NCBI GenBank assembly: GCA_035649735.1
Contig: DASRIZ010000347.1
Location: forward strand, 1,321-65,320
DNA: 64,000 bases
Direction of reading: 5' to 3'
Origin: Blastocatellia bacterium
GTDB taxonomy: Bacteria > Acidobacteriota > Blastocatellia > UBA7656
Of the stretch, positions 27,495-52,568 are shown one piece after another. The first letter of the stretch is position 1, and the number at the start of each line of letters is the position of its first letter. The translations under genes and the position numbers were made by a program. Below the pieces are notes generated by a model. The model searched no databases and was not told the DNA's origin. It saw nothing but the letters and a program-made list of their open reading frames with translations.

Positions 27495-29561
27495 ATGCCA
27501 AATGCAAGAGACGAGCGCCATCGTTACGGACAGCATTACACACCTCGTGAGGTAGCCAGACTACTCGCAGCTTTCGCGATTAGTTCGCCGGGTGATCTGG
27601 TGTTAGACCCGAGCTGCGGTGACGGCAGGTTGCTTCAGGAAGCCGTGCGGTTCAAGCAACAGCTTTGCAAGAATCGTCGCTCAACAAAGGCCTTATCGAA
27701 TCAGGTATTCGGAGTTGAACGCTCGAAGTCCGCCGTGCAAGCCGCAACAAGCACGGGGGCTTGTATTTCAATGGCGGACTTCTTTGATGTCGATCCCGGC
27801 GCGCCTATTAAATCGACTGTTAAATCATTGACGGGTGCCGGCCAGCTCTCATCCACTCCCAGCTCGCTTCCGGTGGAATTCGACGCCATAATCGGGAACC
27901 CTCCATACATTCGTCAGGAAGTGATCGGCTCACTAGGCAAGCGACGCATCGAAGCCCGCCTCGAACGCGATCGCGAGGCTTGCCCCGAAGTGTTCTGGCC
28001 GCGTTGGTCCGGCCGCTCGGATATCTATGTATACTTTTTTGCACATTCGATTCGTTTTTTGAAGAAGAACGGACGGCTGGTTTTTCTAACCGCCAGCAGT
28101 TGGCTCGACGCTGGATATGGTGAAGCGCTTCGTGAGTTTTTGCTTAGGAATTTTCGCGTTGTCGCGGTCATCGAATCCGCCACCGAAAGTTTTTTCACCG
28201 ACGCGTCGATAAACACCTGCATCACCGTGCTTGAGCGCGAAGCCGAGCCGCGCATCAGGGAAGACAATCCAATCAGATTTGTGCGGTTTAATCGCGCCTT
28301 GAACTACGTTCTTGCCGGCCAGTACGCTGAAGGAGCGGGGGTTGATGCTGCGGTGCGTCTAGCTTGCGTCATCCGCGACGAAGATACGAATTCGTGCGAC
28401 TCTTACCGAGTGCGCAGCGTGACCCAGTCTCAGTTATTGAACACCGCGGTCAGTGAGCAGCCTACCGGCGCAGCCCTGGTCCGGGGCTGGGGCAGGTACC
28501 TGCGCGCAGACGATGTCTTTTTCAAGGTAATCGAGCGAGGAGGTTCGAAATTACTCAACCTGTCGCAGATGGCAAGCGTCCGCTTTGGCGTAAAAACGGG
28601 GGCGAATAAGTTCTTCTACGTAAGAGAAGACGATCGTAGTTCGCATCGTGATCGATCCGGGCTGCTCGAGTTGGGAGACGTGGCTTCGGTGCGTCGCGGA
28701 ATTACAACCGGAGCGAACGATTTTTTTTATCTTAGCCCCATCGATCCAATGATTGCGCAAGGCTCGGATCCCCGAGGCTCATCCAACGGTCTCATTGCAG
28801 TGCGTGACTCCGCTGGAAAGCGGCGCGACATCGAACCGAAATTGCTCTCGCTTGTTGTTTTTTCTTTAAAAGAGATTCCAGGAATCCTGCTTGAACGAGT
28901 CGAAGCGCGGCATATGTTATTCAACTGCGCGTTAACCCGGAGCGAGCTTGCCGGCACTCGAGCGCTCGAATACATCGAGAGTGGTGAGCGCGCCGGATAT
29001 CAAAGGCGGCCAACGTGCTCAAATCGCGACCCGTGGTATTCGGTCGCAAGGGGTATGAAGCCCGCGCCGCTGATCTTTCCATCAAAGATTGGAGAGCGCT
29101 GGGTGGTGGCGGTGAATCGGGCGCAGGTTTTCGAAGACAAAAAACTCTACGGCGTGTTCCCGGCTCGTGGTGTCTCGATATTGTTGCTTGCGGCGCTTCT
29201 GAATTCGACGTGGGCGCGTTATTACGCCGAGCTGACTTGCCGCCAGATGACAGGGGCGCAGGCGATCGCCGACATCGACGTAGCTGTAGCCGAACACATC
29301 ATACTATCCGATCCGCACACGTTATCGGCGCGCACAAAGAAGAAGCTCGAAGCTGCGGTTATTGAGTTGTCGAAGCGGCCAATCCTTTCGATCTTCGAAG
29401 AGATCAAACGCGCAGACCGGCGCAGACTCGACTCGGCGACGCTTGAAGCGATCGGCTTTCGGGAAAAAGTCGAGCGAGAATTGGTACTTGATCAGTTGTA
29501 CGACGCGGTGACGGAGCTTGTACGAGCGCGTCTTATCAAATCGCGAGGACGCAATCAATGA
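27495..29561 (+). CDS. Orphan gamma-class N6-adenine DNA methyltransferase (TaqI/Eco57I-like) with a long C-terminal target-recognition region
   Basis: 688 aa. YGQHYTPREVARLL (motif X), LDPSCGDGRLL (motif I) and IIGNPPYIRQE (motif IV) are present. The TRD-type motif G-x-x-TGAN-x-FFY occurs twice. Confidence 0.85.
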   Translation: MPNARDERHRYGQHYTPREVARLLAAFAISSPGDLVLDPSCGDGRLLQEAVRFKQQLCKNRRSTKALSNQVFGVERSKSAVQAATSTGACISMADFFDVDPGAPIKSTVKSLTGAGQLSSTPSSLPVEFDAIIGNPPYIRQEVIGSLGKRRIEARLERDREACPEVFWPRWSGRSDIYVYFFAHSIRFLKKNGRLVFLTASSWLDAGYGEALREFLLRNFRVVAVIESATESFFTDASINTCITVLEREAEPRIREDNPIRFVRFNRALNYVLAGQYAEGAGVDAAVRLACVIRDEDTNSCDSYRVRSVTQSQLLNTAVSEQPTGAALVRGWGRYLRADDVFFKVIERGGSKLLNLSQMASVRFGVKTGANKFFYVREDDRSSHRDRSGLLELGDVASVRRGITTGANDFFYLSPIDPMIAQGSDPRGSSNGLIAVRDSAGKRRDIEPKLLSLVVFSLKEIPGILLERVEARHMLFNCALTRSELAGTRALEYIESGERAGYQRRPTCSNRDPWYSVARGMKPAPLIFPSKIGERWVVAVNRAQVFEDKKLYGVFPARGVSILLLAALLNSTWARYYAELTCRQMTGAQAIADIDVAVAEHIILSDPHTLSARTKKKLEAAVIELSKRPILSIFEEIKRADRRRLDSATLEAIGFREKVERELVLDQLYDAVTELVRARLIKSRGRNQ

Positions 29562-36031: not shown

Positions 36032-36278
36032 AGCGGAACCTCCTTTTAAGCTCTGAGCTCTCCGAGCTGAAGAATTGGCTGTCAATTACCCGCTAAGAAT
36101 ACCCCAACATCGCAATTCAGTCTACGAATCTTGTTGCGGCGGATGACCCGGTCCAGCCAACCTGCGCAGGCGACGTACGTGACAACGATTTCCCCATTAA
36201 CTTGGCCTTCTCGACCCTCAGGCTACCCCTAATCACCCCGATCCCCTAACCGAAAACCCGGCCAAGGCTGTTGAAAAC

Positions 36279-36307
36279 TTGACAGCGATGCGCTCATATT
36301 TTATGCT
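36279..36307 (+). promoter_or_regulatory. Putative sigma-70-type promoter for the J-protein/clpB block (TTGACA-N17-TATGCT)
   Basis: TTGACA at 36279-36284 and TATGCT at 36302-36307, ~50 nt upstream of the ATG at 36358. Confidence 0.3.
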
Positions 36308-36357
36308 GCTTCCGTCGCAGATTATAAACATCAGGTGAGGGCTAGGTCGGGATATCG

Positions 36358-37380
36358 ATGGCGGTCAAGTTCAAGGACTACTATGAGGTGCTTGGCGTCA
36401 AGAGGGACGCCAACGACGAGCAGATTCGCCAGGCGTATCGGAAGCTCGCCCGCAAACATCATCCGGATGTGAATCCCGGCGACAAGATTGCCGAAGACAA
36501 ATTCAAAGAGATCAACGAGGCCAACGAAGTACTCTCCGATCCCGAGAAGCGCAAACGCTACGATCAGCTCGGACCCAATTGGAAGAACGGAGCGGAGTTC
36601 ACGCCGCCGCCGGGCTGGGGACGAGTCAATGTGCAGTTCGACGATCTTGGCAGCATGTTTAGCGGGGGCGGTTTCAGCGATTTCTTCGAGACGCTTTTTG
36701 GTGGAGGAAAGACTTCGGGCCCAACCGATCAGCGGCGCCGAGGTACGCGCTCCCGAAGCGGTCGCGGTCAGGATGCGGAAGCCGAAATGGAGATCTCGCT
36801 TGAAGACGCACACGGCGGAGGACGGCACAGGATAACGCTCCAGGGAACCCGGACTTGTTCGGCTTGTGGAGGAAAAGGAACGACTTCGGGCGGAGTAGTT
36901 TGCACAGTATGCAGAGGGGCAGGCCAGGTTCTGCATCCAAAGACGATCGACGTCAACATACCTCCCGCCGCGCGCGAAGGCTCGGTGATTAAGGTAAGCA
37001 AGCACGGCCAGGGCGGAACAAGCGATCCTGGAGACCTCTTTATAAAGCTCAAGATAAAGCCTCACCCGATCTTCACCGTGTCAGGTGACGATATCACCGC
37101 CGAGGTGCCGATCTCCGCCTCAGAGGCGGTCTTGGGATCAACGATCGAGGTACCTACGATCGACGGCAAGGCCGAGGTGAAGATACCTGCCGGATCTCAG
37201 GGGGGGCAGCGATTGCGGCTGCGAGGCCAGGGTTTGAACAAACGCGGCGGCGGACGCGGAGATCAGTACGTGAGATTGAAGGTGGTGGTGCCGACTCATC
37301 CGACCGATCGAGAAAAAGAGCTCTATCGCGAACTGAGCGGGGCAGGCCATTTTAATCCGCGGGCCGGGTTTGAAAAGTGA
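36358..37380 (+). CDS. J-domain co-chaperone (DnaJ/CbpA-like)
   Basis: 340 aa. DYYEVLGV...KLARKHHPDVNP (HPD), a G/F region, a reduced Zn finger (CSACGGKG...CTVCRGAG), and DnaJ C-terminal domains. Confidence 0.87.
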   Translation: MAVKFKDYYEVLGVKRDANDEQIRQAYRKLARKHHPDVNPGDKIAEDKFKEINEANEVLSDPEKRKRYDQLGPNWKNGAEFTPPPGWGRVNVQFDDLGSMFSGGGFSDFFETLFGGGKTSGPTDQRRRGTRSRSGRGQDAEAEMEISLEDAHGGGRHRITLQGTRTCSACGGKGTTSGGVVCTVCRGAGQVLHPKTIDVNIPPAAREGSVIKVSKHGQGGTSDPGDLFIKLKIKPHPIFTVSGDDITAEVPISASEAVLGSTIEVPTIDGKAEVKIPAGSQGGQRLRLRGQGLNKRGGGRGDQYVRLKVVVPTHPTDREKELYRELSGAGHFNPRAGFEK

Positions 37381-37425: not shown

Positions 37426-40056
37426 ATGGACATCAATAGATTCACCGAAAAAGCACAGGAAGCGGTTCGCGCGGCGCAAACGCTCGCCACCAGATACAGC
37501 AATCAGCAGATCGAAGTTGAACATCTTTTGTTCGCACTGCTGGATCAGCAGAGCGGGCTCGTGCCTTCGGTTCTAAGTCGTGCCGGTGTAAACGTCGATC
37601 CTTTGAAAGCGGCAGTCGAGCGCGAAATAAACAAGATGCCAAAGGTGACTGGACCTTCCGGCCCGGTCGACCAGGTGTACATAACGGCCCGGCTGAATAA
37701 GGTCTTTGTAGCGGCCGAAGACGAAGCCAAGAAACTAAAAGACGAATACGTCAGCGTCGAACACCTCTTGCTGGCGATCATCGAAGACGGGGGCGCTGCC
37801 GCGCGAGCCTTGAAGACGGCCGGCGCGACTCGGGACCGCATTGAAAAAGCTCTAATGGAGGTCCGCGGCCACCAGCGAGTAACCTCACAGAACCCGGAAG
37901 CCACTTATGAGGCCCTCGAGCGATATGGACGGGATCTAACGAAGGCTGCGGCTGCCGGTAAACTCGATCCGGTAATCGGCCGCGATGACGAAATCCGCCG
38001 CGTGATTCAAGTGCTTTCACGCAGAACCAAGAACAACCCGGTGCTTATCGGTGAGCCGGGCGTCGGGAAGACCGCTATCGTAGAAGGCCTGGCGCAGCGG
38101 ATCATTCGAGGGGATGTGCCGGAGAGCTTGAAGAACAGACGGATCGTCTCGCTCGACATGGGCGCGCTCGTCGCAGGCGCGAAATATCGCGGTGAATTTG
38201 AGGAACGTCTCAAAGCGGTGTTGAAAGAGATTCAAGCCTCAGAAGGCGAAATCATCTTGTTCATTGACGAGATGCACACAATCGTAGGCGCGGGGGCTGC
38301 GGAAGGTGCAGTCGACGCGTCGAACCTTCTCAAACCAATGCTTGCGCGCGGGGAGCTGCATTGCATCGGGGCAACGACGCTCGACGAATATCGCAAGCAT
38401 GTAGAGAAAGACGCCGCGCTCGAGCGCCGCTTTCAGCCGGTTATCGTGGATCAGCCCACGGTTGAAGACACGATCTCGATTCTGCGCGGTTTGAAAGAAC
38501 GGTACGAAGTGCATCACGGAGTACGCATCAAAGATTCGGCGTTGGTCTCAGCGGCTGTGTTGTCGCACAGGTATATCACCGACCGTTTTCTGCCGGACAA
38601 GGCCATCGATCTTGTCGATGAGGCAGCAGCAAAGCTCAGGACTGAGATCGACTCTATGCCGGCGGAACTCGATGAGATCCTTCGGCGGGTGATGCAGCTG
38701 GAAATCGAGCGGGAGGCTTTGAAGAAAGAGACCGACTCATCCTCACGTCAGCGGCTCGAGAAACTGGAGAAGGAGCTTGCCGACTTGAGAGCAAACGCGG
38801 ACCAACTCCAGGCGCAGTGGCAAGGCGAGAAAGAAGCGGTCCAGAAGATCCGATCGATTCGCGAAGAAATCGAGCAAACAAAAGTTGCCGTCGAGCAGGC
38901 GCAGCGCGAGTACGATCTCAACCGAGCTGCCGAACTCCAGTACGGGAAACTGACTCAGCTCGAGAAGCAATTGCGTGAATACGAGAACGGGCTCGATCAA
39001 CAGAGCAACAGGACCCGCCTGCTGAAGGAAGAGGTCGACGAGGAAGATATTGCCGAAGTGGTAAGCAGGTGGACGCACATTCCTGTTTCCAAGCTGCTCG
39101 AGGGCGAGCTTCAGAAGCTGCTGTCGCTTGAACAGCATTTACACAAGCGCGTAGTAGGGCAGGACGAAGCCGTGAGCGCTGTTGCCGACGCGGTGATTCG
39201 CGCTCGCTCCGGGCTAAAGGACCCAAATCGGCCAATCGGCTCTTTCATCTTTCTTGGTCCGACCGGAGTTGGCAAAACCGAGCTTGCTCGCGCCCTGGCG
39301 GTTTTTCTGTTCGACGACGAGCACGCGATGATTCGCATAGACATGTCTGAGTATCAAGAGAAGCACGCGGTCGCGCGCCTGATCGGCGCGCCTCCTGGTT
39401 ATGTAGGCTACGAAGAAGGCGGGCAGCTGACTGAAACCGTCAGGCGTCGGCCATACTCAGTAGTGCTGTTTGATGAGATCGAAAAGGCGCATCACGATGT
39501 ATTTAACGTCTTGCTTCAGATACTCGACGATGGGCGGCTGACCGATGGACAGGGCCGGGTCGTAAATTTCAAAAATACAATCGTGATAATGACCAGCAAC
39601 ATCGGAAGCCAATTGATACTGGAGTATCAGGGAAAGGCCAGCGGTGACCAGTACGAGCGAATAAAGGACCGGGTGCTTGACGCACTCCGGCATCACTTTA
39701 GACCCGAGTTTTTGAATCGCGTGGACGAGATCATCGTTTTCCATTCGTTATCCGAGGCTGATTTGAAGCAGATCGTCGACATCCAACTCAACCGATTGCG
39801 CGCACGGTTGGCGGAGCGACGGATAACGCTCGATCTTACGGATGAAGCGAAGACTCATCTTGCTTTATCGGGCTACGATCCGGTGTATGGGGCTCGGCCG
39901 CTAAAGCGAGCGATCCAACGTGAGATCGAGACGCCGCTGTCGAAGTTGATCCTAAAGGGCGATGTGAAGGAGAACGCTTTGGTTAGTGCTCAAGTGTCCG
40001 AGGGAAAGATCGCATTTTCAATCGGGCCGCTCGCGGCTGAAGTCAGTAGTCAGTAG
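37426..40056 (+). CDS. clpB: ATP-dependent chaperone (disaggregase) ClpB
   Basis: 876 aa. Clp N-domain, two AAA+ modules (GEPGVGKTA and GPTGVGKTE), and a long coiled-coil middle domain. Confidence 0.97.
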
Positions 40057-40099
40057 CAGAATATAGGTCCAATAGGTCCAATAGGTCCTATATTGGTTG
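40057..40099. repeat. ATAGGTCC-triplet element (direct orientation), immediately after the clpB stop
   Basis: cagaatataggtccaataggtccaataggtcctatattggttg. Confidence 0.8.
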
Positions 40100-40138
40100 C
40101 TACAAGGTGCATCGCCGGTGCTATCATGAAGGTGATCG

Positions 40139-40486
40139 ATGGAGGTCAATCGTATGAGTGAGATGTTCGTTGGGCGTCGCGCTGATGGCGAACTCTTCAC
40201 TGAAAGAATTGACGGCAAGTGGATCGTACCTCTTTGGTCCAGCAAGGACGCACTGGCTCGATACAAGGAACGCAACCCTGAACTACTGACTTTTCTGCCG
40301 GCTCGCCTGACTGGCTCGCTGCTGCATCGCATACGAAGCGGTCAGGCCGGACCGGAAATCACCGCTTTCTTTCTACTGACCGACGACGATCCCGACGCCG
40401 ATCTTGACGATGGTAGACCGATCTCACTGGACGGAATCACGCTTGAGAGTGAACCTGCAACGCAGCCTGCACAAGTACAGCTTTAG
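40139..40486 (+). CDS. Hypothetical small cytoplasmic protein with an acidic C-terminal tail
   Basis: 115 aa, or 110 aa from the ATG at 40154, which has GGAGG + 8 nt. DDDPDADLDDG tail. I recognise no family. It lies 74 nt upstream of the eRF1-like gene. Confidence 0.55.
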   Translation: MEVNRMSEMFVGRRADGELFTERIDGKWIVPLWSSKDALARYKERNPELLTFLPARLTGSLLHRIRSGQAGPEITAFFLLTDDDPDADLDDGRPISLDGITLESEPATQPAQVQL

Positions 40487-40560
40487 CGCATTCACAAGGC
40501 GCAGCGCGGTACTATCATCCGGACCTGGCATGTACAAGCAAGGTGACAAGGAGGAAGGGT

Positions 40561-41697
40561 ATGATTTCGCACGAAGACTTAAGCCAGCTACACAGCTACT
40601 CATCTGGCCCTGAGTCACTCATTCTGAGCCTTTACGTGAACATAGATCAATCGGATGCCGCGAACCTCAACCGCGGGTTTGAAACCAGAGTCGAAAGCCT
40701 GTTCCGGCAGGCTGCGGAGAATCACAACTCCCACGAGGGAAGCCGGGAGAGATTTGACGCGGAGTGCCAGCGAGTTCGCGATTTTTTACGAGAGTATGTA
40801 CCGAAGGGTAAAGCTCTGGTGCTGTTCAGCGACTCAAAGCGGGATTTCTGGTGGCAACGCGATCTGCAGGTTGAATTGCCAACCGGCGTGCGCTGGTCGC
40901 CGGAGCTGTGGGTGCGGCCCTTGCTCGAAGTCATTGAAGAACACGATCGCTTCGCCGTCGTGTTGATTGATAAACACCACGCTCGCGTCCTGACTTTCGA
41001 TGCCGGCGGATTGGAACAGCAAACCGAAATCGTCTCTGATGTGCCTAATAAACACGCAACCACTGGAACAGATCACATCTGGTCTCAGGGACAGATGGAT
41101 CGCGATCATTTAAATCATGTTCAGTCCCACGCCAGGCGAGTGACGGATGAGCTGACGACGGTGATCGAGCGGATGAAGCTAAAAAGGATAGTCATTGGAG
41201 GACCGGTGGAAGCGACTTCCGTTTTTACCAGCGGGCTTCCGAAGCGTCTACAGCAGATGATTATCGGAACGATTTCCGCCCCGGTAGATGCCAATCGCGA
41301 CCGGATAATCGCCGAGATGAGGTCGGTGCAGGCAAATACCGAGCACGAAGACGAAACTAAGATGGTCGATTCTATGATCACTGCTGCAATGAAAGGCGAC
41401 CGCGCGGTGATTGGAGTCTCAGACACGCTGGGCGCGATCCAGGAAGGCCGGGTCTACCGTCTGGTGGTTGCGCGGGATTTCCGAGCCGAGGGTAAGGAGT
41501 GCGTGGCCTGTCACGTGCTGGTTGCGGACGGAATGGAAAACTGCCCGTTCTGCGCGGGTAAGCTGGAAGCGGCGCCTGATCTGGTTAACCGAGCATCACA
41601 CCGGGTGCTCGACATGGGCGGCACGATTCAACACGTCTCCGGCGAAGCCGCCACGCGGCTTGCGCAAGCGGGGATTGGCGCGGTGTTGAGATTTTGA
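40561..41697 (+). CDS. eRF1/Pelota/Vms1-like (bacterial aeRF1-type) protein with a zinc-ribbon insert
   Basis: Start at the ATG at 40561 after [21 protein letters not shown] opening, central [20 protein letters not shown] loop, and a C-terminal domain-3-like segment [25 protein letters not shown]...CVAC..CPFC...AGIGAVLRF. Confidence 0.65.
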
Positions 41698-41710
41698 ATT
41701 AGTCCGTGGT

Positions 41711-41753
41711 CAGAATATAGGTCCTATAGGTCATATAGGTCCTATATTCAGAC
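41711..41753. repeat. ATAGGTCC-triplet element (direct orientation), after the eRF1-like gene
   Basis: cagaatataggtcctataggtcatataggtcctatattcagac. It has the same first 14 nt and the same terminal ataggtcctatatt as the copy at 40057. Confidence 0.8.
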
Positions 41754-41788
41754 TTCTGACTTTTAACTTGAGACTTAAAAAGGACCAA

Positions 41789-42415
41789 ATGGTATTAATC
41801 CCCACAGTTGTTGAAACAACCGGCAGAGGCGAACGTCACTACGATATCTATTCAAGACTTCTCAAGGAACACATCATTTTTCTCGGAACCGAGATCGACG
41901 AGCCGATCGCAAACATCGTCGTGGCTGAACTGCTTTATCTGGAATCCGAGGATCCTGACCGCGAGATCTCGATCTATATCAACAGCCCGGGAGGATCGAT
42001 TACCGCCGGCCTTGCCATCTATGACACGATGCGTTTTATCAGGCCGGATATTGTGACTATCTGCATGGGTCAGTCGGCCTCGATGGCGGCGCTCCTTCTT
42101 GCCGCGGGAACAAAGGGAAAGAGGTTCTCGCTTCCCCACTCGAGAATAGTGATTCATCAGCCGTCGGTCGAAGGCATAGCCGGCCAGGCGACTGATGTGA
42201 AGATCTACGCGGAGGAACTGTTGCGAACCCGAAACCTGTTGTCGAAAATTCTCGCTGATTTGACGGGACAGTCTTTTGAAAAGACCGACCGTGACGTGGA
42301 ACGAGACTTTATTCTGAGCCCAACGCAAGCCGTGGAATACGGACTCATCGACAGTGTTCTTTCGTCTCGCGATTTGGGGGTTGGTGACCTGGTCGAAACC
42401 GCGAATCTGACATAA
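41789..42415 (+). CDS. clpP: ATP-dependent Clp protease proteolytic subunit
   Basis: Start at [25 protein letters not shown]. Catalytic Ser in GQSASMAA and His in VIHQP. Confidence 0.95.
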
Positions 42416-42491: not shown

Positions 42492-42854
42492 ATGATGATG
42501 TCAAGAAGCAAGAAGATTTTTATAGAGCGCATCAGCAGCGAGTATCGCCGTCCGAGCGGCCCTTTGTGGCAGCCGGCGGTAGATATTTACCGATGTCCCG
42601 AAGGATGGACGATAAAGTTCGATCTCGCCGGGGTGAAACTCGAGGACATTCAGGTGCTGATCGCCGAGGACAAGTTGATAGTGCGCGGCGTCCGTCGGGA
42701 CACCGTGATCACTGAGGGGTGGAGCTATCATCAACTGGAAATAACCTATAGCCGCTTCGAGCGCATTCTGAAGATCCCCTGCGATCTTTCCCGCACCGAG
42801 ATTCAACCCGAAAGCCGGGACGGCTGGTTAATCCTGCGTTTGACCTGTGTTTGA
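42492..42854 (+). CDS. Hsp20/alpha-crystallin family small heat-shock protein
   Basis: 120 aa. The alpha-crystallin domain pattern is PAVDIY....W.IKFDLAGVK.EDI.V....L.VRG.R. Confidence 0.85.
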   Translation: MMMSRSKKIFIERISSEYRRPSGPLWQPAVDIYRCPEGWTIKFDLAGVKLEDIQVLIAEDKLIVRGVRRDTVITEGWSYHQLEITYSRFERILKIPCDLSRTEIQPESRDGWLILRLTCV

Positions 42855-42931: not shown

Positions 42932-45358
42932 ATGACAGAAACGAAAATCTTGGAGCTGCCGATCCTGCCGTTGAGAAATACAGTGATTTTTCCGTCGGGC
43001 ATTACGCCGCTCACGGTGGGCCGCCCATTGTCGCTCGCGGCCGCAGAGGCCGCCCTGTCCACCGAAGAAAAACTGCTCGGCGTGGTGGCTCAGCGCGAGG
43101 ACAATGAAGCCGAACCTACGCCCGAAAATCTGTATAAGACCGGCACGGTCGTGGTCATAAATCGAATGATGCGCTCGCCGGGCGCCGAAGAGGTCCTGCA
43201 TCTTATAGTCCAGGGTCAGGAGCGTTTCCGTGTGATTGAATTCACCGGTCAGACGCCTCACCTGAAAGCTCGCGTCGAGGTCTTGCCCGAACCCATACGC
43301 GAGAAAACTCCGGAGGTCGAAGCGCTTCAAAGGAACATTCAGGTCCTCGTTCAAAAGGCGTTGAGCCTGCTTCCGAACGTGCCGCCGGAGATTCGCAACA
43401 TTATCGTTCAGGCCGACGACGCGGTGCGCCTCGCTTACTTCCTGGGTTCGGTGCTCGATCTGAATGTTACCCAGGAGCAGGCGCTGCTGGAGGCCGATAC
43501 CGAAAGCGATGTGCTTCACCTGATGCACACCTACCTCGCTCGCGAAGTCGAGGTATTGGAGATCAGGAGCAAGATCGCGAATCAGGCGCAAGAGGAGCTC
43601 GGAAAAGCGCAGCGTGACTTCATCCTGCGTGAACAAATGAAGCAGATCCAAAAGGAACTCGGCGAAGGCGAAGGCGGCGAGCAAGCCGAGGCCCAGCTTC
43701 TCCGCGAGAGAATAGAGAAGGCCGAGCTGCCTGATGAGGTTCGCGCCGAAGCGGATCGCGAGCTCAAACGGCTCGAGCGCTTGCCTACCGCAGCCCCGGA
43801 TTATCACGTCATTCGAACCTATCTTGACTGGATTCTTGACCTGCCGTGGAAAAAATCGACCGAGGAGGCGTTGGATCTCAACAAAGCGCAGGAGGTGCTC
43901 GACGAGGATCATTACGATTTGGAAGACATAAAACAACGGATCCTCGAGCACCTGGCAGTGATCAAGCTCAATCCCAGGACAAAGGCCCCGATACTCTGCT
44001 TTGTCGGCCCGCCGGGGGTTGGCAAGACAAGTCTGGGTCAATCCATCGCGCGGTCGATGGGTCGCAAGTTCGAGCGAATGTCGCTTGGCGGAATGCGCGA
44101 CGAAGCGGAGTTGCGCGGGCATCGACGAACCTACATCGGTTCAATGCCCGGACGAATCATTCAGGCGCTCAGACGAGCGGGCGTCAACAACCCGGTGATG
44201 ATGCTCGACGAAGTCGACAAGCTCGGGATGGATTTCCGCGGCGATCCGGCTTCCGCGCTGCTCGAGGTCCTCGACCCAGCTCAGAACTTTTCGTTTAGGG
44301 ACCATTATTTGGATTTGCCGTTCGATCTGTCGAAGGTGTTTTTCATAGCGACCGCAAACACCCTGTCGCCCATACCGCCTGCCCTGCGCGACCGCATGGA
44401 AGTGATCCGTCTTTCGGGATACACCGAAGAGGAAAAGCTTCATATTGCCATTAGATATCTTGTGCCGCGTCAGGTCCGGGAAGCCGGGTTGACCGATGAG
44501 CAGATCAAGTTCGCGGATGAAGCGCTTCAGGGGATCATCAGCCGTTACACGCGCGAGGCCGGCGTCCGGCAGCTTGAGAGAAACATCGGAAGCGTCGCTC
44601 GCAAGATCGCGCTCAAGGTCGCGCAAGGCAAAGGCGAGGCGTTCACCATCAAACCCGAGGAGCTTGAAGAGTATCTCGGTCACGAGATGTTCTTCCACGA
44701 GATGGCCCGGCAAAAGCTTCCGGCCGGAGTTGCGACCGGGATGGCCGTGACCGAGATGGGCGGAGAGGTCCTGTTTGTCGAGGCGACCTTACTGCCTGGT
44801 TCGAAGGGTCTGACGCTGACCGGCCAGCTCGGCGATGTGATGCAGGAATCGGCAAAAGCCGCGCTGAGCTATCTGTGGTCGCACTCGAATGAGCTGGGGT
44901 TTGATTGCGCTGAGAAGTTCGGAAACAGCGGTGTGCACGTACACGTCCCAGCGGGGGCAACTCCAAAGGATGGACCATCGGCTGGGGTCGCAATCATATC
45001 CGCGCTCGCATCGTTGTGCACGGGACGTCCGGTGCGCAGCGATACGGCGATGACCGGCGAAATCACGTTGAGCGGATTGGTGCTCCCGGTAGGCGGGATA
45101 AAGGGCAAAGTCCTTGCGGCTCGCCGATCGGGAATGAAGCGAGTTGTGTTGCCAAAAAAGAACGAAGCCGATCTCAAAGATATTCCCGAGGAGGCGATGC
45201 GCGATCTCGAGGTTGTGCTTGTGGAGAGAATCAATGAGCTTCTCCCTCAAACGCTGATTCCCTCGGAGGAAGCGCAACCCGAGATGCCCATACCAGAATC
45301 GCAACCTTCGACGTCGGGCACGGAAGTGCGCGTCGAAGGTGGCGAAGCTCATGCGTAA
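42932..45358 (+). CDS. lon: ATP-dependent Lon protease
   Basis: Start at MTETKILELPILPLRNTVIFP (LON N-domain). Walker A GPPGVGKTS and catalytic PKDGPSAGVA...K. Confidence 0.97.
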   Translation: MTETKILELPILPLRNTVIFPSGITPLTVGRPLSLAAAEAALSTEEKLLGVVAQREDNEAEPTPENLYKTGTVVVINRMMRSPGAEEVLHLIVQGQERFRVIEFTGQTPHLKARVEVLPEPIREKTPEVEALQRNIQVLVQKALSLLPNVPPEIRNIIVQADDAVRLAYFLGSVLDLNVTQEQALLEADTESDVLHLMHTYLAREVEVLEIRSKIANQAQEELGKAQRDFILREQMKQIQKELGEGEGGEQAEAQLLRERIEKAELPDEVRAEADRELKRLERLPTAAPDYHVIRTYLDWILDLPWKKSTEEALDLNKAQEVLDEDHYDLEDIKQRILEHLAVIKLNPRTKAPILCFVGPPGVGKTSLGQSIARSMGRKFERMSLGGMRDEAELRGHRRTYIGSMPGRIIQALRRAGVNNPVMMLDEVDKLGMDFRGDPASALLEVLDPAQNFSFRDHYLDLPFDLSKVFFIATANTLSPIPPALRDRMEVIRLSGYTEEEKLHIAIRYLVPRQVREAGLTDEQIKFADEALQGIISRYTREAGVRQLERNIGSVARKIALKVAQGKGEAFTIKPEELEEYLGHEMFFHEMARQKLPAGVATGMAVTEMGGEVLFVEATLLPGSKGLTLTGQLGDVMQESAKAALSYLWSHSNELGFDCAEKFGNSGVHVHVPAGATPKDGPSAGVAIISALASLCTGRPVRSDTAMTGEITLSGLVLPVGGIKGKVLAARRSGMKRVVLPKKNEADLKDIPEEAMRDLEVVLVERINELLPQTLIPSEEAQPEMPIPESQPSTSGTEVRVEGGEAHA

Positions 45359-45389
45359 GATGTGATGGACGGGATTGGCGATAGTCGTT

Positions 45390-46829
45390 ATGTACACCGA
45401 GTTATTCGAGACAATCTATCCGATCAACACCAAAAAAGAGAAAGGCGTGGTGGTAACCGCGGTGGACCCGTTCGCCCTCGGTGACCGACTCGGTATTCAG
45501 CCCGGCGACCGCATAGTGAAAGTCAACGGCCGCGACCTGCACGACTTCCTCGATTTTCAGTTCTACACCGGAAGCGAAGACTGCGTCCGCCTCGAGATCG
45601 TCAAGAAATCCGGAGAGGCGGCAGCCGTCGAAACTGAAGTGGGCGAAGGCGAAATCTGGGGTCTCGATTTTGAATATTTCTCGCCGCGACAGTGCGCGAA
45701 CGACTGCATATTTTGTTTTTGCAACCAGAACCCTGCCGGCTCACGCGAGTCTCTGTTCTTTAAGGACGAAGATACGCGGCTGTCGTTTCTTCACGGCAAC
45801 TACACAACGATGTCTTCGATCTCAAAAATCGAGCTCGATCGCATTGTCGAACAGCGGCTGTCGCCACAATATGTCTCCGTACACGCTACAGATCCAGAAG
45901 TTCGCCGCTATCTGCTTGGCCGCAAGCGGCCAGATGACGTGCTTGGTAAGATGCGATACCTCGCGGCTAACGGCATCGAGCTTCACGCTCAAATAGTTTT
46001 GTGCCCATCCATCAACGACGGTCAGGTGCTAAAACGCACAATAGACGATCTGGCGGAACTCCATCCCGGTTTACGTTCGGTTGCCGTAGTTCCGGTCGTA
46101 TTCACCAGACTGCATAACTATAGAGACAGGATGACCGCGGTGACGGAGGCGTTCGCTAAGGCGCTGATCAAGGAGGTTCGGCAGTGGCAGCGCGAGTTTC
46201 GAAGACAACTGGGGACAACTTTTGTGTTTCTTGCCGATGAGTTTTATCTGCGCGCTGGTGTGTCCTTGCCGGGACGCGCCCACTATGGTGACTATCCGCA
46301 GATCGAAGACGGTGTGGGAATGGTGCGCAGATTCGTGGTCGATGCGAAGAGAACGCTGAGTCACGATCTTGTTTCTGATTTCCAGTTAAGACCGGGTTCG
46401 CTGCGAGGCACAATTGCGACGGGTGAACTCTTCTACCCAATACTTGCGCAGTACGTAGACCAGATAAACAGAATGTGCGGCACGAGACTCAAGATTAGCG
46501 CAATCCGAAATCGGTTCTTTGGCGAGGAGGTAACCGTGGCCGGGCTGATCGCGGGAAGCGACGTGCTGGCGGCCCGAGATTCGATCCAGGGAGAGTTCCT
46601 GATCGTCCCCGAGCAGGCGTGCCTGAAGTCAGGCAACACATTTCTCGATGACCTTACGGTGGAGCAACTGGAAGGTGAACTTCAGATGCCCGTCTCGCAC
46701 GGGGGCGGATCGGTCCTAAGCCTCATCACCCAGGCGTCGGCGCTTGAGCAGCGTCTCGAGGCCGGTTCAGGAACGGTAACTAGCCGGAACCTTACACAAG
46801 CCTCTGCAAATCTCACGGCTCGTCGATAA
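45390..46829 (+). CDS. PDZ-domain radical-SAM-like protein (DUF512-type)
   Basis: N-terminal PDZ (GIQPGDRIVKVNGRDL) and a CANDCIFC (Cx3Cx2C) cluster. The start could be TTG at 45375 or ATG at 45390. Confidence 0.75.
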   Translation: MYTELFETIYPINTKKEKGVVVTAVDPFALGDRLGIQPGDRIVKVNGRDLHDFLDFQFYTGSEDCVRLEIVKKSGEAAAVETEVGEGEIWGLDFEYFSPRQCANDCIFCFCNQNPAGSRESLFFKDEDTRLSFLHGNYTTMSSISKIELDRIVEQRLSPQYVSVHATDPEVRRYLLGRKRPDDVLGKMRYLAANGIELHAQIVLCPSINDGQVLKRTIDDLAELHPGLRSVAVVPVVFTRLHNYRDRMTAVTEAFAKALIKEVRQWQREFRRQLGTTFVFLADEFYLRAGVSLPGRAHYGDYPQIEDGVGMVRRFVVDAKRTLSHDLVSDFQLRPGSLRGTIATGELFYPILAQYVDQINRMCGTRLKISAIRNRFFGEEVTVAGLIAGSDVLAARDSIQGEFLIVPEQACLKSGNTFLDDLTVEQLEGELQMPVSHGGGSVLSLITQASALEQRLEAGSGTVTSRNLTQASANLTARR

Positions 46830-47115: not shown

Positions 47116-47158
47116 GAGAGGTCGTCACTCGGGCACAGTGGCGACCTCCAATTTTTTT
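47116..47158 (+). terminator. Rho-independent terminator (orphan, in a long ORF-free spacer)
   Basis: Stem 47118-47129 (gaggtcgtcact) pairs with 47137-47148 (agtggcgacctc). The loop is 7 nt, followed by caa + T7. Confidence 0.6.
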
Positions 47159-47244: not shown

Positions 47245-49317
47245 CTAGGATTGAGATCTTGGCTTCAAGTGGTTGTCGAACCATTCGAGGACCGTGTTGT
47301 ACCATAGTTCCGAGTTTTGCGGCTTGAGGATCCAGTGTCCTTCATCCGGATAAATCAGCAGCTTTGACTCGACGCCCTGGCGCTGCAGCGCGGTAAACAG
47401 CTGCAGACCTTCTCCGACGGGCACTCGATAATCCAGCTCACCGTGAATCACCAGCATCGGCGTCTTGAAGTCTTTCACAAAGGCGTGCGGCGACCACTTC
47501 GCGTACATTTCCGGGTTTGTCCACGGCATACCCTTGAATTCCCACTCAGGAAACCAGAGCTCTTCGGTGGCGCCGTACATGCTCGTCAGATTATAAACAC
47601 CGGCGTGCGAAACAAGCGCGCTGAACTTAACACGAGGGTCTGTGTTGTGGCCTTCTATCCAGTTGACCATGTACCCGCCGTAGCTTCCTCCTGCGGCCCC
47701 GATTCGCTCGCGATCGATGTACGGCATTGCGGCGACGTACGCGACACCATTGAGTATGTCGGCGTAGACCTTGCCGCCCCAATCGCCGGAAATGTCATCG
47801 ACAAACTTTTGACCATAGCCGGTCGATCCGCGCGGATTTGGGGAGAACACTACATATCCGGCTGCTGCAAACAGCTGGGGGTTCCAACGATAGCTCCACG
47901 AATCGTTCCAGGACCCTTGCGGTCCGCCGTGTATCAAAACAATCAGCGGCCACTTCTTTGCCGCGCTGAAATTTGCCGGCTTGGTTATGAAGCCGTGCAC
48001 CCGCGAGCCGACTGCGCCTTCCCACGAGACTTCTTCCGCAGGCTTGAGATTGAAGTCGCCAATAAACGCTTCGTTGGTTTTTGTTAGTTGTGTAATCGCC
48101 GCGCCAATTGAGTTGGCTTTGTAGATTTCAACGGGCTGGGCGAGGCTCTGCCTGGTGAATACCAGCATCTTTCCATCTTTGCTCACCTGCAGATCGTCGT
48201 TGAACCCCTCATTTATTACCTTCTTGCCGGGCCCGCCGCCCAACGGGACTTCATAGATCGGTTGGCGACCTTGATCAAGAGCCGTCAAATAGATCCTCTG
48301 ACCATCTGCGGAGAAGGTGAAGCTTTCGACGGATGAATCGAATTGTTCAGTTAACGAATGGCTTTGCCCGGTCTTTCGATCATAGATCATCAATCGCCAG
48401 CGATCTGCTTCGAAACCTGATTTCGCCTGGGCTCGATACGCGATGTATCGGCTGTCGGGCGAGTACAAAGGCGTCAGATCGTTAGCCGGATTCTCACCGG
48501 TGATGCGCCTGGGTTCGCCGCCGCCAACCGGCACAATGAAAAGATCGCCGTTTGTCGATCTAGCCTCATCCTTGTCGGTGTTGCGCGCAAACGCGAGTTC
48601 TTTTGAGTCGGGCGAGAAGGCATAGTCAACTTGTCCGCCAAGACTAAACGGAGGCGCATCGTAGTCGCCCGGCGTCAGGTCGCGGAATTCGCCGCTGTCG
48701 GCGGAAGCGACAAACACATGAGAACGCTTGCCTTCCTTCCACGAGCTCCAGTGCCGAAACAACAATCGATCGGCGATCTTCGCTTTGACCTTGCTGGCGG
48801 CCGCCTTTTCGGCGCGCTGTTTGTTGCAATCATCGGATTTGCACTCCGGATAAACTTCGGAGGTAAATGCGAGCCACTTTCCATCGGGCGACCAAACCGG
48901 CCCGTCCGCGCCGGTTGATATGTTGGTGATCTTTTTAGGGCTTGTGCTGGTTTCCGACGGTTCGAGGGTCCAGATTTGAGATTCGCCGTCGCGCGCCGAA
49001 ACAAAGGCAAGACGTTTTCCGTCGGGCGACCATCGTGGTGAATGGGATGATTGCTTGTCGTTTGTAAGACCGCGGGGTTCTCCGCCATCGGTGGAGATCA
49101 AATAGATCTGAGTAGTTCGTCTGTTGGCAGCTTTATCGGTATCGGCAATCGTATAGGCTATCCACCGGCCGTCCGGCGAAAGTTGCGGATCCGCCACGCG
49201 CCGGACCTTTAGCAGATCATCAATCGTGAAGAGTCGACCCGGTTGCTGCTCCCTGGCCGCCCCGATCGAAACCAAACACAGAACGATAATAGTAACTAAC
49301 GCGAAGACGCGTCTCAT
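47245..49317 (-). CDS. Secreted S9 family serine peptidase with a TolB-like beta-propeller
   Basis: 690 aa with a signal peptide. WD40-like/PD40 repeats (SPDGKRLAF, SPDGKWLAF), nucleophile GGSYGGYM, and HGELDYRV..DEGH. Confidence 0.9.
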   Translation of the reverse strand: MRRVFALVTIIVLCLVSIGAAREQQPGRLFTIDDLLKVRRVADPQLSPDGRWIAYTIADTDKAANRRTTQIYLISTDGGEPRGLTNDKQSSHSPRWSPDGKRLAFVSARDGESQIWTLEPSETSTSPKKITNISTGADGPVWSPDGKWLAFTSEVYPECKSDDCNKQRAEKAAASKVKAKIADRLLFRHWSSWKEGKRSHVFVASADSGEFRDLTPGDYDAPPFSLGGQVDYAFSPDSKELAFARNTDKDEARSTNGDLFIVPVGGGEPRRITGENPANDLTPLYSPDSRYIAYRAQAKSGFEADRWRLMIYDRKTGQSHSLTEQFDSSVESFTFSADGQRIYLTALDQGRQPIYEVPLGGGPGKKVINEGFNDDLQVSKDGKMLVFTRQSLAQPVEIYKANSIGAAITQLTKTNEAFIGDFNLKPAEEVSWEGAVGSRVHGFITKPANFSAAKKWPLIVLIHGGPQGSWNDSWSYRWNPQLFAAAGYVVFSPNPRGSTGYGQKFVDDISGDWGGKVYADILNGVAYVAAMPYIDRERIGAAGGSYGGYMVNWIEGHNTDPRVKFSALVSHAGVYNLTSMYGATEELWFPEWEFKGMPWTNPEMYAKWSPHAFVKDFKTPMLVIHGELDYRVPVGEGLQLFTALQRQGVESKLLIYPDEGHWILKPQNSELWYNTVLEWFDNHLKPRSQS

Positions 49318-49438: not shown

Positions 49439-49486
49439 AATAGGTCCTTTAGAAATATAGGTCCGATCGGTCATATAGGTCCTATT
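49439..49486. repeat. ATAGGTCC-family element
   Basis: aataggtcctttagaaatataggtccgatcggtcatataggtcctatt. It ends 3 nt before the esterase stop. Confidence 0.75.
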
Positions 49487-50609: not shown

Positions 50610-52568
50610 TTACTTGCCGGCGTCCAAGCCACGTAGATACTTATCGAGAAAGTCCAGAATAGCCTTGTATCCTCTGATCTCGTTAACCTTCTTGGTGAAG
50701 CCGTGACCTTCGTCGTCAAACAAAACGTACTCCACAACGCCGCCTTTCTTCTTGACTGCTGCGACTATTTCGTCGGACTCAGGTTTGATTACGCGTGGAT
50801 CGTTCTTGCCTTGCAACACCATCAAAGGCTTCACGATTTTATCGGAGTGAAAGAGCGGAGAAACGGCTTTAAGCTTCTCACGATCGGTGGTTGGGTCACC
50901 GACTTCCTTGTAAAGCGCCTTGCGGAAAGACTCCCAGTAGGGCGGAATTGATTCCAATGTTCGGAGCCAGTTGGAAATACCAAACAAATCTACGCCTACC
51001 GCAAACTCGTCGGGCTTGAACGCAAGCGCGGCAAGAACCATGTACCCGCCGTAACTTCCGCCCAGGATTCCGATCTTCGATGTGTCGACATAACCGAGCG
51101 ACGCTAGATATTTCTTCGCCTCAACGCAATCCCATAGCGGTTCGCGGCCGTGCTTCTGATCATCGGCGGTGAAAAACGTCTTGCCGTATCCCGAGCTTCC
51201 GCGATTGTTGACTCCCAGAATCACGTAACCGTGGTTTACGAGGTACTGAATTACTCCGCTGTAACCCGTTCGGGTCTGACCACCAGGACCTCCGTGAATC
51301 CACAGCAGCGCCGGGGCCTTCTTCGTAGCGCTCGCCTGATGGGGTTTGTACAGGATGGAGGGGATCTCCATCCCATCAAACGATTTGAAGCGGATTACTT
51401 TTGACTCGACCAGATCGGCCGTGTCGATTTCGGGGTTCAAGCTATCAGTGAGCTTGAGTACCTTTTTTGTCGCGAAGTCGTAGACGTAAAGGTTGCTCGG
51501 CGATCGGGACCCGTTGAAATAGAACGTCATCAACTGCTCGCTCCGGGAAATGTTCACCGAGGTTATGTCCCCTTCAGGAAAAGCCGGCAACGCGATCGGC
51601 TTGCCGGTTGCTGTGTCGTAGATCTTTATCTTTGTGCGCGCGTCTTCATTGACACCCGAGACTCGATACTTGCCGTTGTGCGAAAAATAGGTGAACGCGA
51701 CATCCCAGTTCACTTTTTCAATCGGCTCTTTCTTTCCAGTCGTCAAGTCGTATCGAGCGACATATGAGAATTCGCTTCCTTCGTCGGTTTGGTAATACAA
51801 GTATCTTCCCGCCGGGTCGAAGGCTGCCGGGCTTGAAGCAACGTCGCCCTGGTGCGGGGTTATGTTCTTCATTTCTTTTGTCGCGACGCTGTAAAGATAA
51901 ATGTCTGAATCGGAGGTCGTGCTAGGTTTCGCGAAGGCGATGAATTTACCGTCGCCGGAAATGTCGCCGACCTGATAGCCGACATTGTCCTGATAAACCA
52001 GCGTTCGCGCAAAGCTGGCGGCATCCAGCTTGTAGATATCAAAAAAACGCTGATCGCGCTCGTTGGTGTAAATGTAAAAAGCGCTGCCGTCGCGAGTCCA
52101 ACTGAGGAACTGTGCCTTGAGCTTATCGCCCGGCGTGAGGTCCTTCTCGTGGCCGTTCGCACCAAGTACGTAAATGTGGTTGTTTTCGTTACCGCCCTGG
52201 TCGTGTGTGTACAGGATGCGCGAGTCTTTCGGGAAGTAATCTATGCTGAAAGTACTCTCAGTCGTCGAGCGAGTGAGTTGCTTTGGCTCGCCGCCGCTAA
52301 CCGGAACGCTGTAAACATTGTAGATCCCGCTCTTGTTACTTGAGAATAGGATCGACTTTTCATCCGGTGAGAAAGAGCTGCCTCGGATTGATGTAGTAGT
52401 CAGAAACTGTTCAATTGTGTACTGCTTGACCGCCCGCGTCGGACTGCCTTTTTTGGCGCCCTGGCCAAACGACGGCGCGATTAACGATGCCAACACCATG
52501 AAAACGGCTATAGCCGCTGCAAATCGGGGTTTTCGCTCTGGTAACATATTTCGCAATTTCATAAACAT
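50610..52568 (-). CDS. Secreted S9 family serine peptidase (third paralogue)
   Basis: 652 aa. Signal peptide, propeller region, GGSYGGYM, and QGKNDPRV...DEGHGF. Confidence 0.9.
   Translation of the reverse strand: MFMKLRNMLPERKPRFAAAIAVFMVLASLIAPSFGQGAKKGSPTRAVKQYTIEQFLTTTSIRGSSFSPDEKSILFSSNKSGIYNVYSVPVSGGEPKQLTRSTTESTFSIDYFPKDSRILYTHDQGGNENNHIYVLGANGHEKDLTPGDKLKAQFLSWTRDGSAFYIYTNERDQRFFDIYKLDAASFARTLVYQDNVGYQVGDISGDGKFIAFAKPSTTSDSDIYLYSVATKEMKNITPHQGDVASSPAAFDPAGRYLYYQTDEGSEFSYVARYDLTTGKKEPIEKVNWDVAFTYFSHNGKYRVSGVNEDARTKIKIYDTATGKPIALPAFPEGDITSVNISRSEQLMTFYFNGSRSPSNLYVYDFATKKVLKLTDSLNPEIDTADLVESKVIRFKSFDGMEIPSILYKPHQASATKKAPALLWIHGGPGGQTRTGYSGVIQYLVNHGYVILGVNNRGSSGYGKTFFTADDQKHGREPLWDCVEAKKYLASLGYVDTSKIGILGGSYGGYMVLAALAFKPDEFAVGVDLFGISNWLRTLESIPPYWESFRKALYKEVGDPTTDREKLKAVSPLFHSDKIVKPLMVLQGKNDPRVIKPESDEIVAAVKKKGGVVEYVLFDDEGHGFTKKVNEIRGYKAILDFLDKYLRGLDAGK

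Follow-up and report, generated by a model that had tools for sequence, protein, structure and literature searches.

Balon is an archaeal-type release-factor fold that has been reused by bacteria to silence ribosomes; to our knowledge, only three Balon homologues have been studied, all of them without the catalytic-type loop and the zinc ribbon. The Balon homologues occupy the ribosomal A site and inhibit translation: Msmeg1130 of Mycobacterium smegmatis (PDB 8V9J/8V9L), the structure of which was determined in the A site together with EF-Tu, inhibits translation, Balon keeps the peptidyl-transferase centre inactive and guards against premature release, i.e. nascent chains are not freed, and the genes of Balon homologues share their stress operons with those for Hsp20, DnaK/DnaJ, RaiA, OsmY and sigma factors (PMC10901736). 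Here, we present a relative of these proteins, 378 amino acids (aa) in length, that is encoded on the + strand at positions 40561-41697 of a stretch of 64,000 nucleotides from a Blastocatellia bacterium (assembly GCA_035649735.1, contig DASRIZ010000347.1, positions 1,321 to 65,320), which we refer to as "the window". Its gene is part of a row of chaperone and protease genes, and we consider it rather probable that the protein acts in the A site in the manner of Balon, where it would arrest translation and shield ribosomes, and that it is expressed together with the proteostasis machinery.

The family to which the protein belongs has also been described from a different angle. Burroughs & Aravind tie conserved glutamine and loop-type features, together with the zinc ribbon, to catalytically active release factors, link a constrained loop length to the active families, and name family 10 (in 2019) as the baeRF-1 family that is most likely a peptidyl hydrolase; in their account, the zinc ribbon of the Pelota domain is the ancestral state, from which the two-strand insert found in most baeRF-1 families has degenerated (PMC6514570). 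The gene of the 378-aa protein is new within this known family, baeRF-1 family 10 or the Balon family, and is not a new system; its family-10 subtype has already been catalogued. The features of the protein that are discussed first are the following:

40561-41697, + strand: baeRF-1 family 10 / Balon-like protein of the aeRF1 superfamily, 378 aa (Pfam PF18854, PDB sequence match, Foldseek).
41047-41109, + strand: equivalent of the catalytic loop, aa 163-183 (HMMER alignment, conservation in the clade).
41500-41553, + strand: CxxC...CxxC zinc ribbon (C314, C317, C328, C331) in the C-terminal Pelota-type domain (alignment).

The comparison with the Pfam database has assigned the protein to baeRF_family10 (PF18854, a model of the central RNase-H-like domain of bacterial aeRF1 family 10) with 112 bits over aa 117-252, where the curated threshold is 27.1, and has returned weaker matches to domains 2 and 3 of eRF1, to acVLRF1 and to other baeRF families. 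In the sequence search of the PDB, the top match is the Msmeg1130 Balon (E 1.7e-9), which aligns over aa 21-378, with both termini in the alignment; the profile of the family reaches the same structure at 4.5e-39. Msmeg1130, the sequence of which was rebuilt from the PDB-search alignment for the Pfam scan, scores 124.7 bits on baeRF_family10, and this is the best Pfam model for Msmeg1130 and for the distant relatives of the window protein; since both score on this model, the window protein and Msmeg1130 are placed in one Pfam family. The original prediction, made from the DNA letters alone, had described the bacterial homologues as essentially uncharacterised, which is outdated, because the 378-aa protein shares its Pfam family with Msmeg1130, solved in the A site, and the Balon family was characterised in Nature in 2024 (PMC10901736).

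The predicted fold leads to the same family. The AlphaFold2 model, built on 29 homologues, has a predicted local distance difference test score (pLDDT) of 72.6 and a predicted template modelling score (pTM) of 0.46, which is low, the placement of the domains being uncertain. When the model is searched with Foldseek, Msmeg1130 and the P. urativorans Balon come first (3e-19 to 1e-16), aRF1/eRF1 second (about 1e-17 to 1e-10) and Pelota/Dom34 third (about 1e-8 to 1e-6); each of the 41 matches with E<=1e-4 is a Balon, an aRF1/eRF1 or a Pelota/Dom34, most of them with more than 370 aligned columns. Judged by its profile matches and its modelled fold, the 378-aa protein is a member of the aeRF1 superfamily, with a predicted three-domain N-M-C architecture. 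The Pfam profile and the Foldseek search thus bear out the eRF1/Pelota affinity that had been proposed from the sequence, and the peptide motifs on which that proposal relied are all found in the translation (aa 163-182, aa 314-331, the terminal AGIGAVLRF and a C-terminal stretch of 27 letters); the motif LSLYVNID is present as well, at aa 22-29, where it forms the first β-strand and not the literal N-terminus, as had been stated.

With Msmeg1130, the window protein shares the Pfam family, the three domains from end to end, the leading position among the Foldseek matches, the N-terminal (L/V)SLY.N.D strand, the C-terminal G(I/V)(G/A)AVLR(F/W) end, the lack of NIKS and, at least at its canonical position, of GGQ, and a stress-linked genomic context. 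Msmeg1130 differs in that it is without the SQ context, H186/H190 and all four cysteines of the zinc ribbon, in the place of which it has a degenerate β-hairpin, and in its reported regulation, which is by hypoxia, with no chaperone operon; more generally, compared with the CHARACTERISED Balons, the window protein keeps the glutamine loop and the four-cysteine zinc ribbon. The prototype of the family, the Psychrobacter urativorans Balon (PDB 8RD8/8RDV/8RDW), resembles the window protein in its three-domain, aeRF1-like fold (Foldseek 2.5e-18 to 1e-16) and in the stress-response role of the family, but it is very distant in sequence, and its commonest neighbour, RaiA, is not among the ORFs scanned in this window.

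The likeness to aRF1/eRF1 consists in the domain order, in a P.KH...G loop that aligns to PKKHGRGGQS, and in a C-terminal end of the GG(I/y)(G/a)..LRY type; the aRF1 structure 4af1 also carries a cysteine-bearing insert at the same site of domain 3. Unlike aRF1/eRF1, the window protein has TGT for GGQ, with the glutamine displaced by six residues, and its translated N domain contains neither of the stop-codon motifs NIKS and YxCxxxF. Termination in bacteria is carried out by RF1/RF2. The scores of the protein lie below the cut-offs of the models for aRF1 (TIGR03676, 57.6 bits, cut-off 234.7), pelota (TIGR00111, 17.5 bits, cut-off 177.65) and acVLRF1 (PF18859, 23 bits, cut-off 27.1). Vms1/ANKZF1 and the VLRF-1 clade (GxuQ / GGxSQ factors of ribosome quality control that release chains or cleave tRNA) have in common with it a tiny residue and a glutamine (S175-Q176) after a conserved glycine, and the exact GGxSQ occurs in short-loop relatives of family 10; the window protein differs from them in keeping the full classical N and C domains and in a spacing from G to SQ that is four residues longer in its clade, and the N-extension, treble clef, ankyrin and VIM modules that are specific to VLRF-1 are not found in it. 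Pelota/Dom34 is similar in the folds of the central and C-terminal domains, but the match is far weaker, and Pelota has a poorly conserved loop without glutamine, an Sm-like N domain and loop A.

The loop at the position of GGQ and the zinc ribbon are the two sites where the window protein departs from the solved Balons. The HMMER alignment pairs KHATTGTD with KHGRGGQS of eRF1, in agreement with the original placing of the central loop; the position of GGQ therefore reads TGT, with a conserved glutamine located six residues further on. Seven residues of the loop (T168, G169, D171, S175, Q176, R181 and H183) and the four cysteines (C314, C317, C328 and C331) are invariant in 29 close homologues. 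The zinc ribbon, which had been recognised in domain 3 beforehand and is indeed an insert with four cysteines, is located where Balon has the β-hairpin that binds EF-Tu, aligns with the hairpin region of Msmeg1130 and with the cysteine-bearing insert of aRF1 4af1, and is an intact zinc ribbon and not a degenerate hairpin. In 138 full-length representatives of the family, the glutamine is kept in 93 and the four cysteines in 110, both together in 71, while the length of the loop is sharply bimodal, either 10 or 15 residues. Among distant relatives (25-59% identity), those with the short loop read KHKQGGWSQ, an exact GGxSQ, and those of the window type read ..KH..T.G.DH..SQ; in the window loop, TG-TDHI-WSQ, the uQ pair is kept, one glycine is gone and four residues (TDHI) are inserted, so that by alignment this loop is derived from GGxSQ. 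The position of GGQ itself thus reads TGT, but the invariant SQ that follows six residues later is homologous to the GGxSQ of the short-loop relatives, and the solved Balons are without it.

The second body of evidence is the genomic context. The genes of the row, apart from that of the 378-aa protein, are:

36358-37380, + strand: DnaJ/CbpA-like J-domain co-chaperone, 340 aa (Pfam DnaJ 2.8e-28, DnaJ_C 1.9e-41).
37426-40056, + strand: ClpB disaggregase, 876 aa (Pfam Clp_N, AAA, AAA_lid_9, AAA_2, ClpB_D2-small).
40154-40486, + strand: small orphan open reading frame (ORF), 110 aa (no Pfam match; homologues, Shine-Dalgarno site GGAGG).
41768-42415, + strand: ClpP peptidase subunit (Pfam CLP_protease 1e-76).
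42492-42854, + strand: small heat-shock protein Hsp20 (Pfam HSP20 6e-10).
42932-45358, + strand: Lon protease (Pfam LON_substr_bdg, AAA, Lon_lid, Lon_C).
45375-46829, + strand: PDZ, radical-SAM-like and DUF512 protein (Pfam), the eighth gene of the row, 16 nucleotides past lon.

The ORF list and the Pfam matches reproduce the row of seven + strand genes with short spacers that had been noticed previously (dnaJ-like, clpB, the small ORF, the 378-aa ORF, clpP, hsp20 and lon); the spacers from dnaJ to lon measure 45, 97, 74, 70, 76 and 77 nucleotides. The 378-aa ORF is preceded by the Shine-Dalgarno sequence AAGGAGG, 6 nucleotides 5' of its start. The NCBIfam scores of the dnaJ-like protein are under the DnaJ equivalog cut-offs, and the ORF of lon opens at 42851, with the start at ATG 42932 backed by the sequence and by the position where the alignments of homologues begin.

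A wide protein search with the 378-aa protein has retrieved 323 relatives, the best 120 of which are 65-98% identical, the few with an organism name being Blastocatellia or Acidobacteriota; an exhaustive search of representatives has returned 2,680 cluster representatives at E<=1e-3. Synteny was compared by tblastn of the block proteins of the window against 63 fetched loci, to which we refer by their L numbers. In 34 genome loci of the Blastocatellia type (58-85% identity), the order (NHL protein)-(infA, opposite strand)-DnaJ-ClpB-[small ORF]-baeRF10-[ClpP]-Hsp20-Lon-(DUF512) is found wherever the flanks exist; L020 and L025 have the block without clpP, and so has the metagenome locus L006. 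In the 22 more distant loci, a core of baeRF10-Hsp20-Lon is present in L045, L046, L050 and L051 (36-39% identity), ClpB is located directly 5' of baeRF10 in L057 (Chloroflexota, 31%), and L040 and L041 (41-43%) have the order DnaJ-ClpB-HtrA/DegP-small-ORF homologue-FtsH-LigB/AMMECR1-baeRF10. Since it recurs in dozens of related genomes, the arrangement is not due to chance, and the expectation that the eRF1-like gene would stay with clpB, hsp20 and lon in relatives has held; the location in a stress operon, with DnaJ, ClpB, ClpP, Hsp20 and Lon, is found both in the window and in its relatives. The linkage does not depend on the glutamine of the loop, a conclusion drawn from two loci that have lost this residue but kept the context: L050, where the pair reads GH, next to Hsp20-Lon, and L057, where it reads SE, next to ClpB.

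Other distant members of the family are placed next to stress genes of different kinds. An HPF/RaiA (S30AE) gene adjoins a same-strand family-10 gene in L043 (43% identity) and in L049 (Halothece); the adjacent same-strand neighbours that were scanned also include universal stress proteins (L048, L061), BON-domain proteins (L053, L056) and DUF2267 proteins (L049, L054). L053 has, in addition, a ClpP-like SDH protease and a protein resembling sigma factors, and L063 has Hsp20 and rubrerythrin. The HPF/RaiA, Usp, BON, sigma-factor and Hsp20 neighbours are contexts of the Balon type, because they are the same as those reported for Balon.

Some further observations concern individual loci. The HPF/RaiA-type genes (L043:4645-5664, L049:1030-1371) are located immediately 5' of family-10 genes that retain the glutamine and the zinc ribbon; the S30AE ORF of L043 has an additional match to sigma70 region 4, and could represent either a fusion or two ORFs merged into one. 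In the distant Acidobacteriota locus L040:1094-12243, as well as in L041, the same-strand cluster continues past baeRF10 with a PIG-L deacetylase and CutA1, and a HIT-domain gene follows a few hundred bases on; LigB/AMMECR1 is a fusion in both loci. Three contigs of metagenome-assembled genomes with the typical Blastocatellia block (L009, L013 and L037, 58-84% identity) are titled "uncultured Clostridia bacterium", and L046, with baeRF10-Hsp20-Lon, is titled Rhodospirillales; these titles are probably taxonomic mislabels or belong to mis-binned contigs.

The reading of the 378-aa protein as a Balon-type factor is based on its family membership, its fold, the conservation of its motifs and its synteny with chaperone/protease or other stress genes, and it is backed by the contexts that are shared with Balon, including the adjacency of glutamine-retaining relatives to HPF. 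From these we infer ribosome binding, the involvement of EF-Tu, stress induction and the arrest of translation. As misfolded protein builds up, the disaggregase, the holdase and the proteases would be made together with a factor that cuts the supply of nascent chains: the tRNA-shaped, three-domain protein would most likely enter the ribosomal A site, EF-Tu would probably contact its C-terminal domain and zinc ribbon, and the bound protein would block the decoding and peptidyl-transferase centres, so that translation would be arrested and the ribosomes protected during stress. The broad idea of a stress-translation module, as put forward originally, is consistent with the homology and the genomic context.

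Several points weigh against this reading. Identity to Msmeg1130 is about 21-23%, and the equivalog models of the hibernation factors in NCBIfam are missed by far (score/cut-off in bits: MSMEG_1130 94.5/480, Rv2629 47.1/320 and AOC03_06830 38.8/330), i.e. in sequence terms the protein is a homologue, yet no equivalog, of any characterised Balon. The profile of the family scores archaeal aRF1 (4.5e-18) about equal to Rv2629 (4.3e-16), and barely reaches the P. urativorans Balon (7.7e-6), in the N-terminal half only; because its profile rates aRF1 like Rv2629 and far above the P. urativorans Balon, the subfamily of the window type appears to occupy an intermediate position between aRF1 and those Balons that have been studied. 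The HP motif (decoding centre), the lasso loop (A2602) and the bL27 trap, which are features of Balon defined on cryo-electron microscopy structures (PMC10901736), cannot be located by sequence, the P. urativorans Balon aligning weakly. The window protein also retains features that are not found in the solved Balons, namely the invariant Ser-Gln pair with its loop of constant length, H186/H190 and a complete zinc ribbon. The ORFs scanned elsewhere in the window include no hpf/raiA, and the literature, when searched for expression data or for previous accounts of the operon in Acidobacteria, has yielded no relevant paper.

The alternative that survives best, which was also the model of the original prediction, describes the protein as a catalytically active rescue or release factor in the A site of stress-stalled ribosomes: Q176 would trigger the hydrolysis of peptidyl-tRNA or would cause the tRNA to be cut at its 3' end, and the chains would pass to ClpB, Hsp20, ClpP and Lon. 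It is favoured by the invariance of S175, Q176, G169, D171, R181 and H183 in the clade and by the short-loop relatives with the exact GGxSQ (KHKQGGWSQ), but in the window loop GG has become TG and TDHI is inserted before WSQ, a geometry that is unlike every proven catalytic loop. The intact zinc ribbon, the glutamine of 93 out of the 138 representatives and their two loop lengths, 10 or 15, also speak for activity, whereas the chaperone/protease context survives the loss of the glutamine (L050, L057), and relatives that retain it adjoin HPF/RaiA hibernation genes. The weak Pfam matches to acVLRF1 and eRF1_2 point in the same direction as the loop, but no motif for sensing a stop codon or an empty A site is present (there is no NIKS, and loop A of Pelota has not been identified). 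As for the physical linkage to proteases, there is no clpX in the block and ClpB does not dock on ClpP, so a direct path for the hand-over of chains is not evident. Although family 10 has been singled out as the likeliest peptidyl hydrolase of baeRF-1 (PMC6514570), the one protein of this Pfam family that has been characterised has no catalytic activity, and Balon prevents release, which is the opposite of handing over chains to ClpB, ClpP and Lon (PMC10901736). We regard this alternative as unlikely, albeit a serious competitor. Its wider form, which we also find doubtful, is that the family-10 proteins with the glutamine loop and the intact zinc ribbon would still release or cleave peptidyl-tRNA, a Vms1-like step wired to ClpB/Hsp20/ClpP/Lon, with the Actinobacterial and Psychrobacter Balons as catalytically dead derivatives. 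A literature search for newer work that tests Balon homologues with a retained glutamine has found none.

A further alternative, in which the protein occupies the A site without catalysis but for a purpose other than hibernation, i.e. Pelota-like recognition of stalls with subunit splitting or recycling, or antagonism of RelA and the stringent response, appears quite improbable to us. The fold does match Pelota/Dom34 (E about 1e-8), but this match is far below those of Balon or aRF1, with 17.5 bits on TIGR00111, where the cut-off is 177.65, and no ABCE1-like or splitting partner is located in the block. Dom34-like, non-catalytic rescue has been proposed for baeRF-1 proteins, but the loop of the window protein is strongly conserved, which those of Dom34 are not (PMC6514570); other roles in the A site, such as RelA antagonism, were left possible by the authors of the Balon study (PMC10901736).

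Finally, that the adjacency is merely an inherited gene order, the eRF1-like gene having its own promoter and an unrelated role, is very improbable, since, despite the conserved TGnTATCAT past clpB and before the small ORF/baeRF10 unit, the stable hairpins on either side of the 378-aa gene in this genome, and about 12 of the 22 distant family members that are without a chaperone/protease gene among the neighbours tested, simple inheritance does not predict the linkage to Hsp20-Lon or ClpB that recurs at 31-43% identity in separate lineages, nor the differently composed proteostasis cluster of L040, with HtrA and FtsH, and an internal promoter is compatible with co-regulation.

The non-coding elements of the row are listed below:

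36275-36325, + strand: promoter-like block 5' of dnaJ, AAACTTGACA-N8-CTCATATTTTATGCT...GCAGATT (promoter scan, alignment of 14 loci).
40053-40103, + strand: element resembling repetitive extragenic palindromic (REP) sequences, three 9-bp units (A/T)ATAGGTCC in a hairpin over the stop of clpB (40056) (repeat scan).
40119-40127, + strand: extended -10-like TGnTATCAT (TGCTATCAT), a candidate promoter within the row that would serve the small ORF/baeRF10 unit.
40513-40518, + strand: second, degenerate TATCAT promoter-like copy (TTCACA-16-TATCAT) 5' of baeRF10 (promoter scan 10/12).
41701-41761, + strand: second REP-like element, three copies of ATAGGTCC, in a long hairpin with 28-nucleotide arms between baeRF10 and clpP.
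47118-47158, + strand: hairpin resembling an intrinsic terminator (47118-47148; 12-bp stem, 7 GC pairs), followed by a T-run.

The block upstream of dnaJ is of the sigma70 type (TTGACA-17-TATGCT), with an unusually conserved spacer segment; its columns are invariant in 14 Blastocatellia loci, where the sequence around it is otherwise unalignable, which suggests that the conserved spacer and downstream segment (36275-36325) are a candidate binding site for a regulator or a leader element. A sigma32-type promoter at this place (TTGAAA...GCTCATAT) was rejected, as its spacing is wrong for sigma32 and the alignment conserves TTGACA-17-TATGCT; inverted repeats of the CIRCE (controlling inverted repeat of chaperone expression) or HAIR (HspR-associated inverted repeat) type are found neither in the upstream region of dnaJ nor in any spacer. 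In nearly all Blastocatellia loci, the spacer that follows ClpB has kept a motif of the GTGCTATCATG type, 5' of the small ORF or, if the latter is missing, 5' of baeRF10; the unit of small ORF and baeRF10, perhaps with clpP-hsp20-lon, may thus be transcribed also from an internal promoter. At the second copy, about 28 nucleotides resemble 40102-40127 (ACAAGG.GCA.CGC.GGT.CTATCAT), a pattern such as a duplication of the promoter region upon the acquisition of the small ORF would leave; this copy does not occur in the spacers between the small ORF and baeRF10 of relatives, i.e. it is lineage-specific. The DUF512 gene trails lon in many relatives, and may belong to the same transcription unit as lon, the end of which is likely the terminator-like hairpin at 47118-47148.

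The predicted RNA folds of the two REP-like hairpins have energies of -19.1 kcal/mol (z -4.2) at 40053-40103 and -30 kcal/mol (z -5.9) at 41701-41761. Triplets of (A/T)ATAGGTCC, with overlapping palindromes TATAGGTCCTATA, are located at five positions, all intergenic (27433-27463, 40062-40092, 41716-41746, 49439-49486 and 63367-63397), and there are 26 matches at up to 2 mismatches, where 0.21 are expected; the triplet is absent from the equivalent spacers of relatives. The idea of an operator shared across the block was consequently discarded, as three of the five sites are at unrelated intergenic places of the window and the spacers of relatives are without the repeat, which looks like a genome-specific REP-like sequence. 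Directly 3' of one of the repeat sites, the window encodes an Eco57I-like/N6 DNA methylase (27495-29561, 688 aa).

The small ORF between clpB and the 378-aa gene had been described as a product of 115 aa with a DDDPDADLDDG tail. The ORF (40139-40486) and the motif exist, but the true start is Met6, at ATG 40154, as the homologues, mostly 106-110 aa, begin there and a GGAGG site is located 7 nucleotides 5' of it; the product has 110 aa, and the motif is a conserved acidic loop (aa 83-93 of 115), with 22 residues following it. Homologues, first 64 and then 297 in a wide profile search, are all Acidobacteriota proteins without a name or a Pfam domain; given their number, their conserved hydrophobic pattern and the good Shine-Dalgarno sequence, the small ORF is, on sequence grounds, a real gene. 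Its AlphaFold2 model (pLDDT 74) has TTHA0547, a hypothetical protein of Thermus (PDB 2z0r), as the sole match (E 4.5e-4, template modelling score 0.6-0.7), with Tic22 appearing faintly; Pfam, NCBIfam, the PDB sequence profile and the wide profile search have given nothing above threshold that would name it. Weak matches to DUF2750 (10 of 29 homologues, best E 0.0035) and SseB (2 of 29) are confined to homologues, the window protein itself having no Pfam match and the PDB profile search being empty.

The small ORF is present in 30 of the 33 informative Blastocatellia genome loci, in all cases inside the proteostasis cluster, but not in all next to baeRF10. An obligate partnership with baeRF10 was rejected: the small ORF is absent in L001, L002/L044, L016 and L033, and in L040/L041 FtsH and the LigB-AMMECR1 gene intervene. 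The fixed pair of the original prediction does not hold, given the 3 of 33 loci without the small ORF and L040, where its homologue is flanked by htrA and ftsH, at a distance of 3.4 kb from the eRF1-like gene. We treat the small ORF as a gene in its own right, restricted to its lineage and accessory to the proteostasis cluster, and our guess at its role would be that of a regulator or an adaptor.

Elsewhere in the window, no clpX and no second clpP were found among the ORFs scanned. Downstream of the row, on the - strand, two S9-family peptidases with β-propellers and RNase R (RNB/CSD2/S1) are encoded at 47245-49317, 50610-52568 and 52719-54920; L002/L003 share the synteny of the first S9 peptidase and of RNase R, an enzyme with known links to ribosome and mRNA quality control.

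The 378-aa protein stands for a large part of its Pfam family, namely the members that keep both the glutamine of the loop and the zinc ribbon, and its gene is built into the core heat-shock proteostasis block of Blastocatellia. If the protein is a hibernation factor, a major soil phylum would couple the arrest of translation directly to its chaperone/protease response. If its glutamine has a function, the protein would be the first hydrolase of the aeRF1 type in bacteria and an evolutionary intermediate between aRF1 and Balon, and, if it carries out a release step, the block would be a previously unrecognised bacterial module for the quality control of nascent chains.

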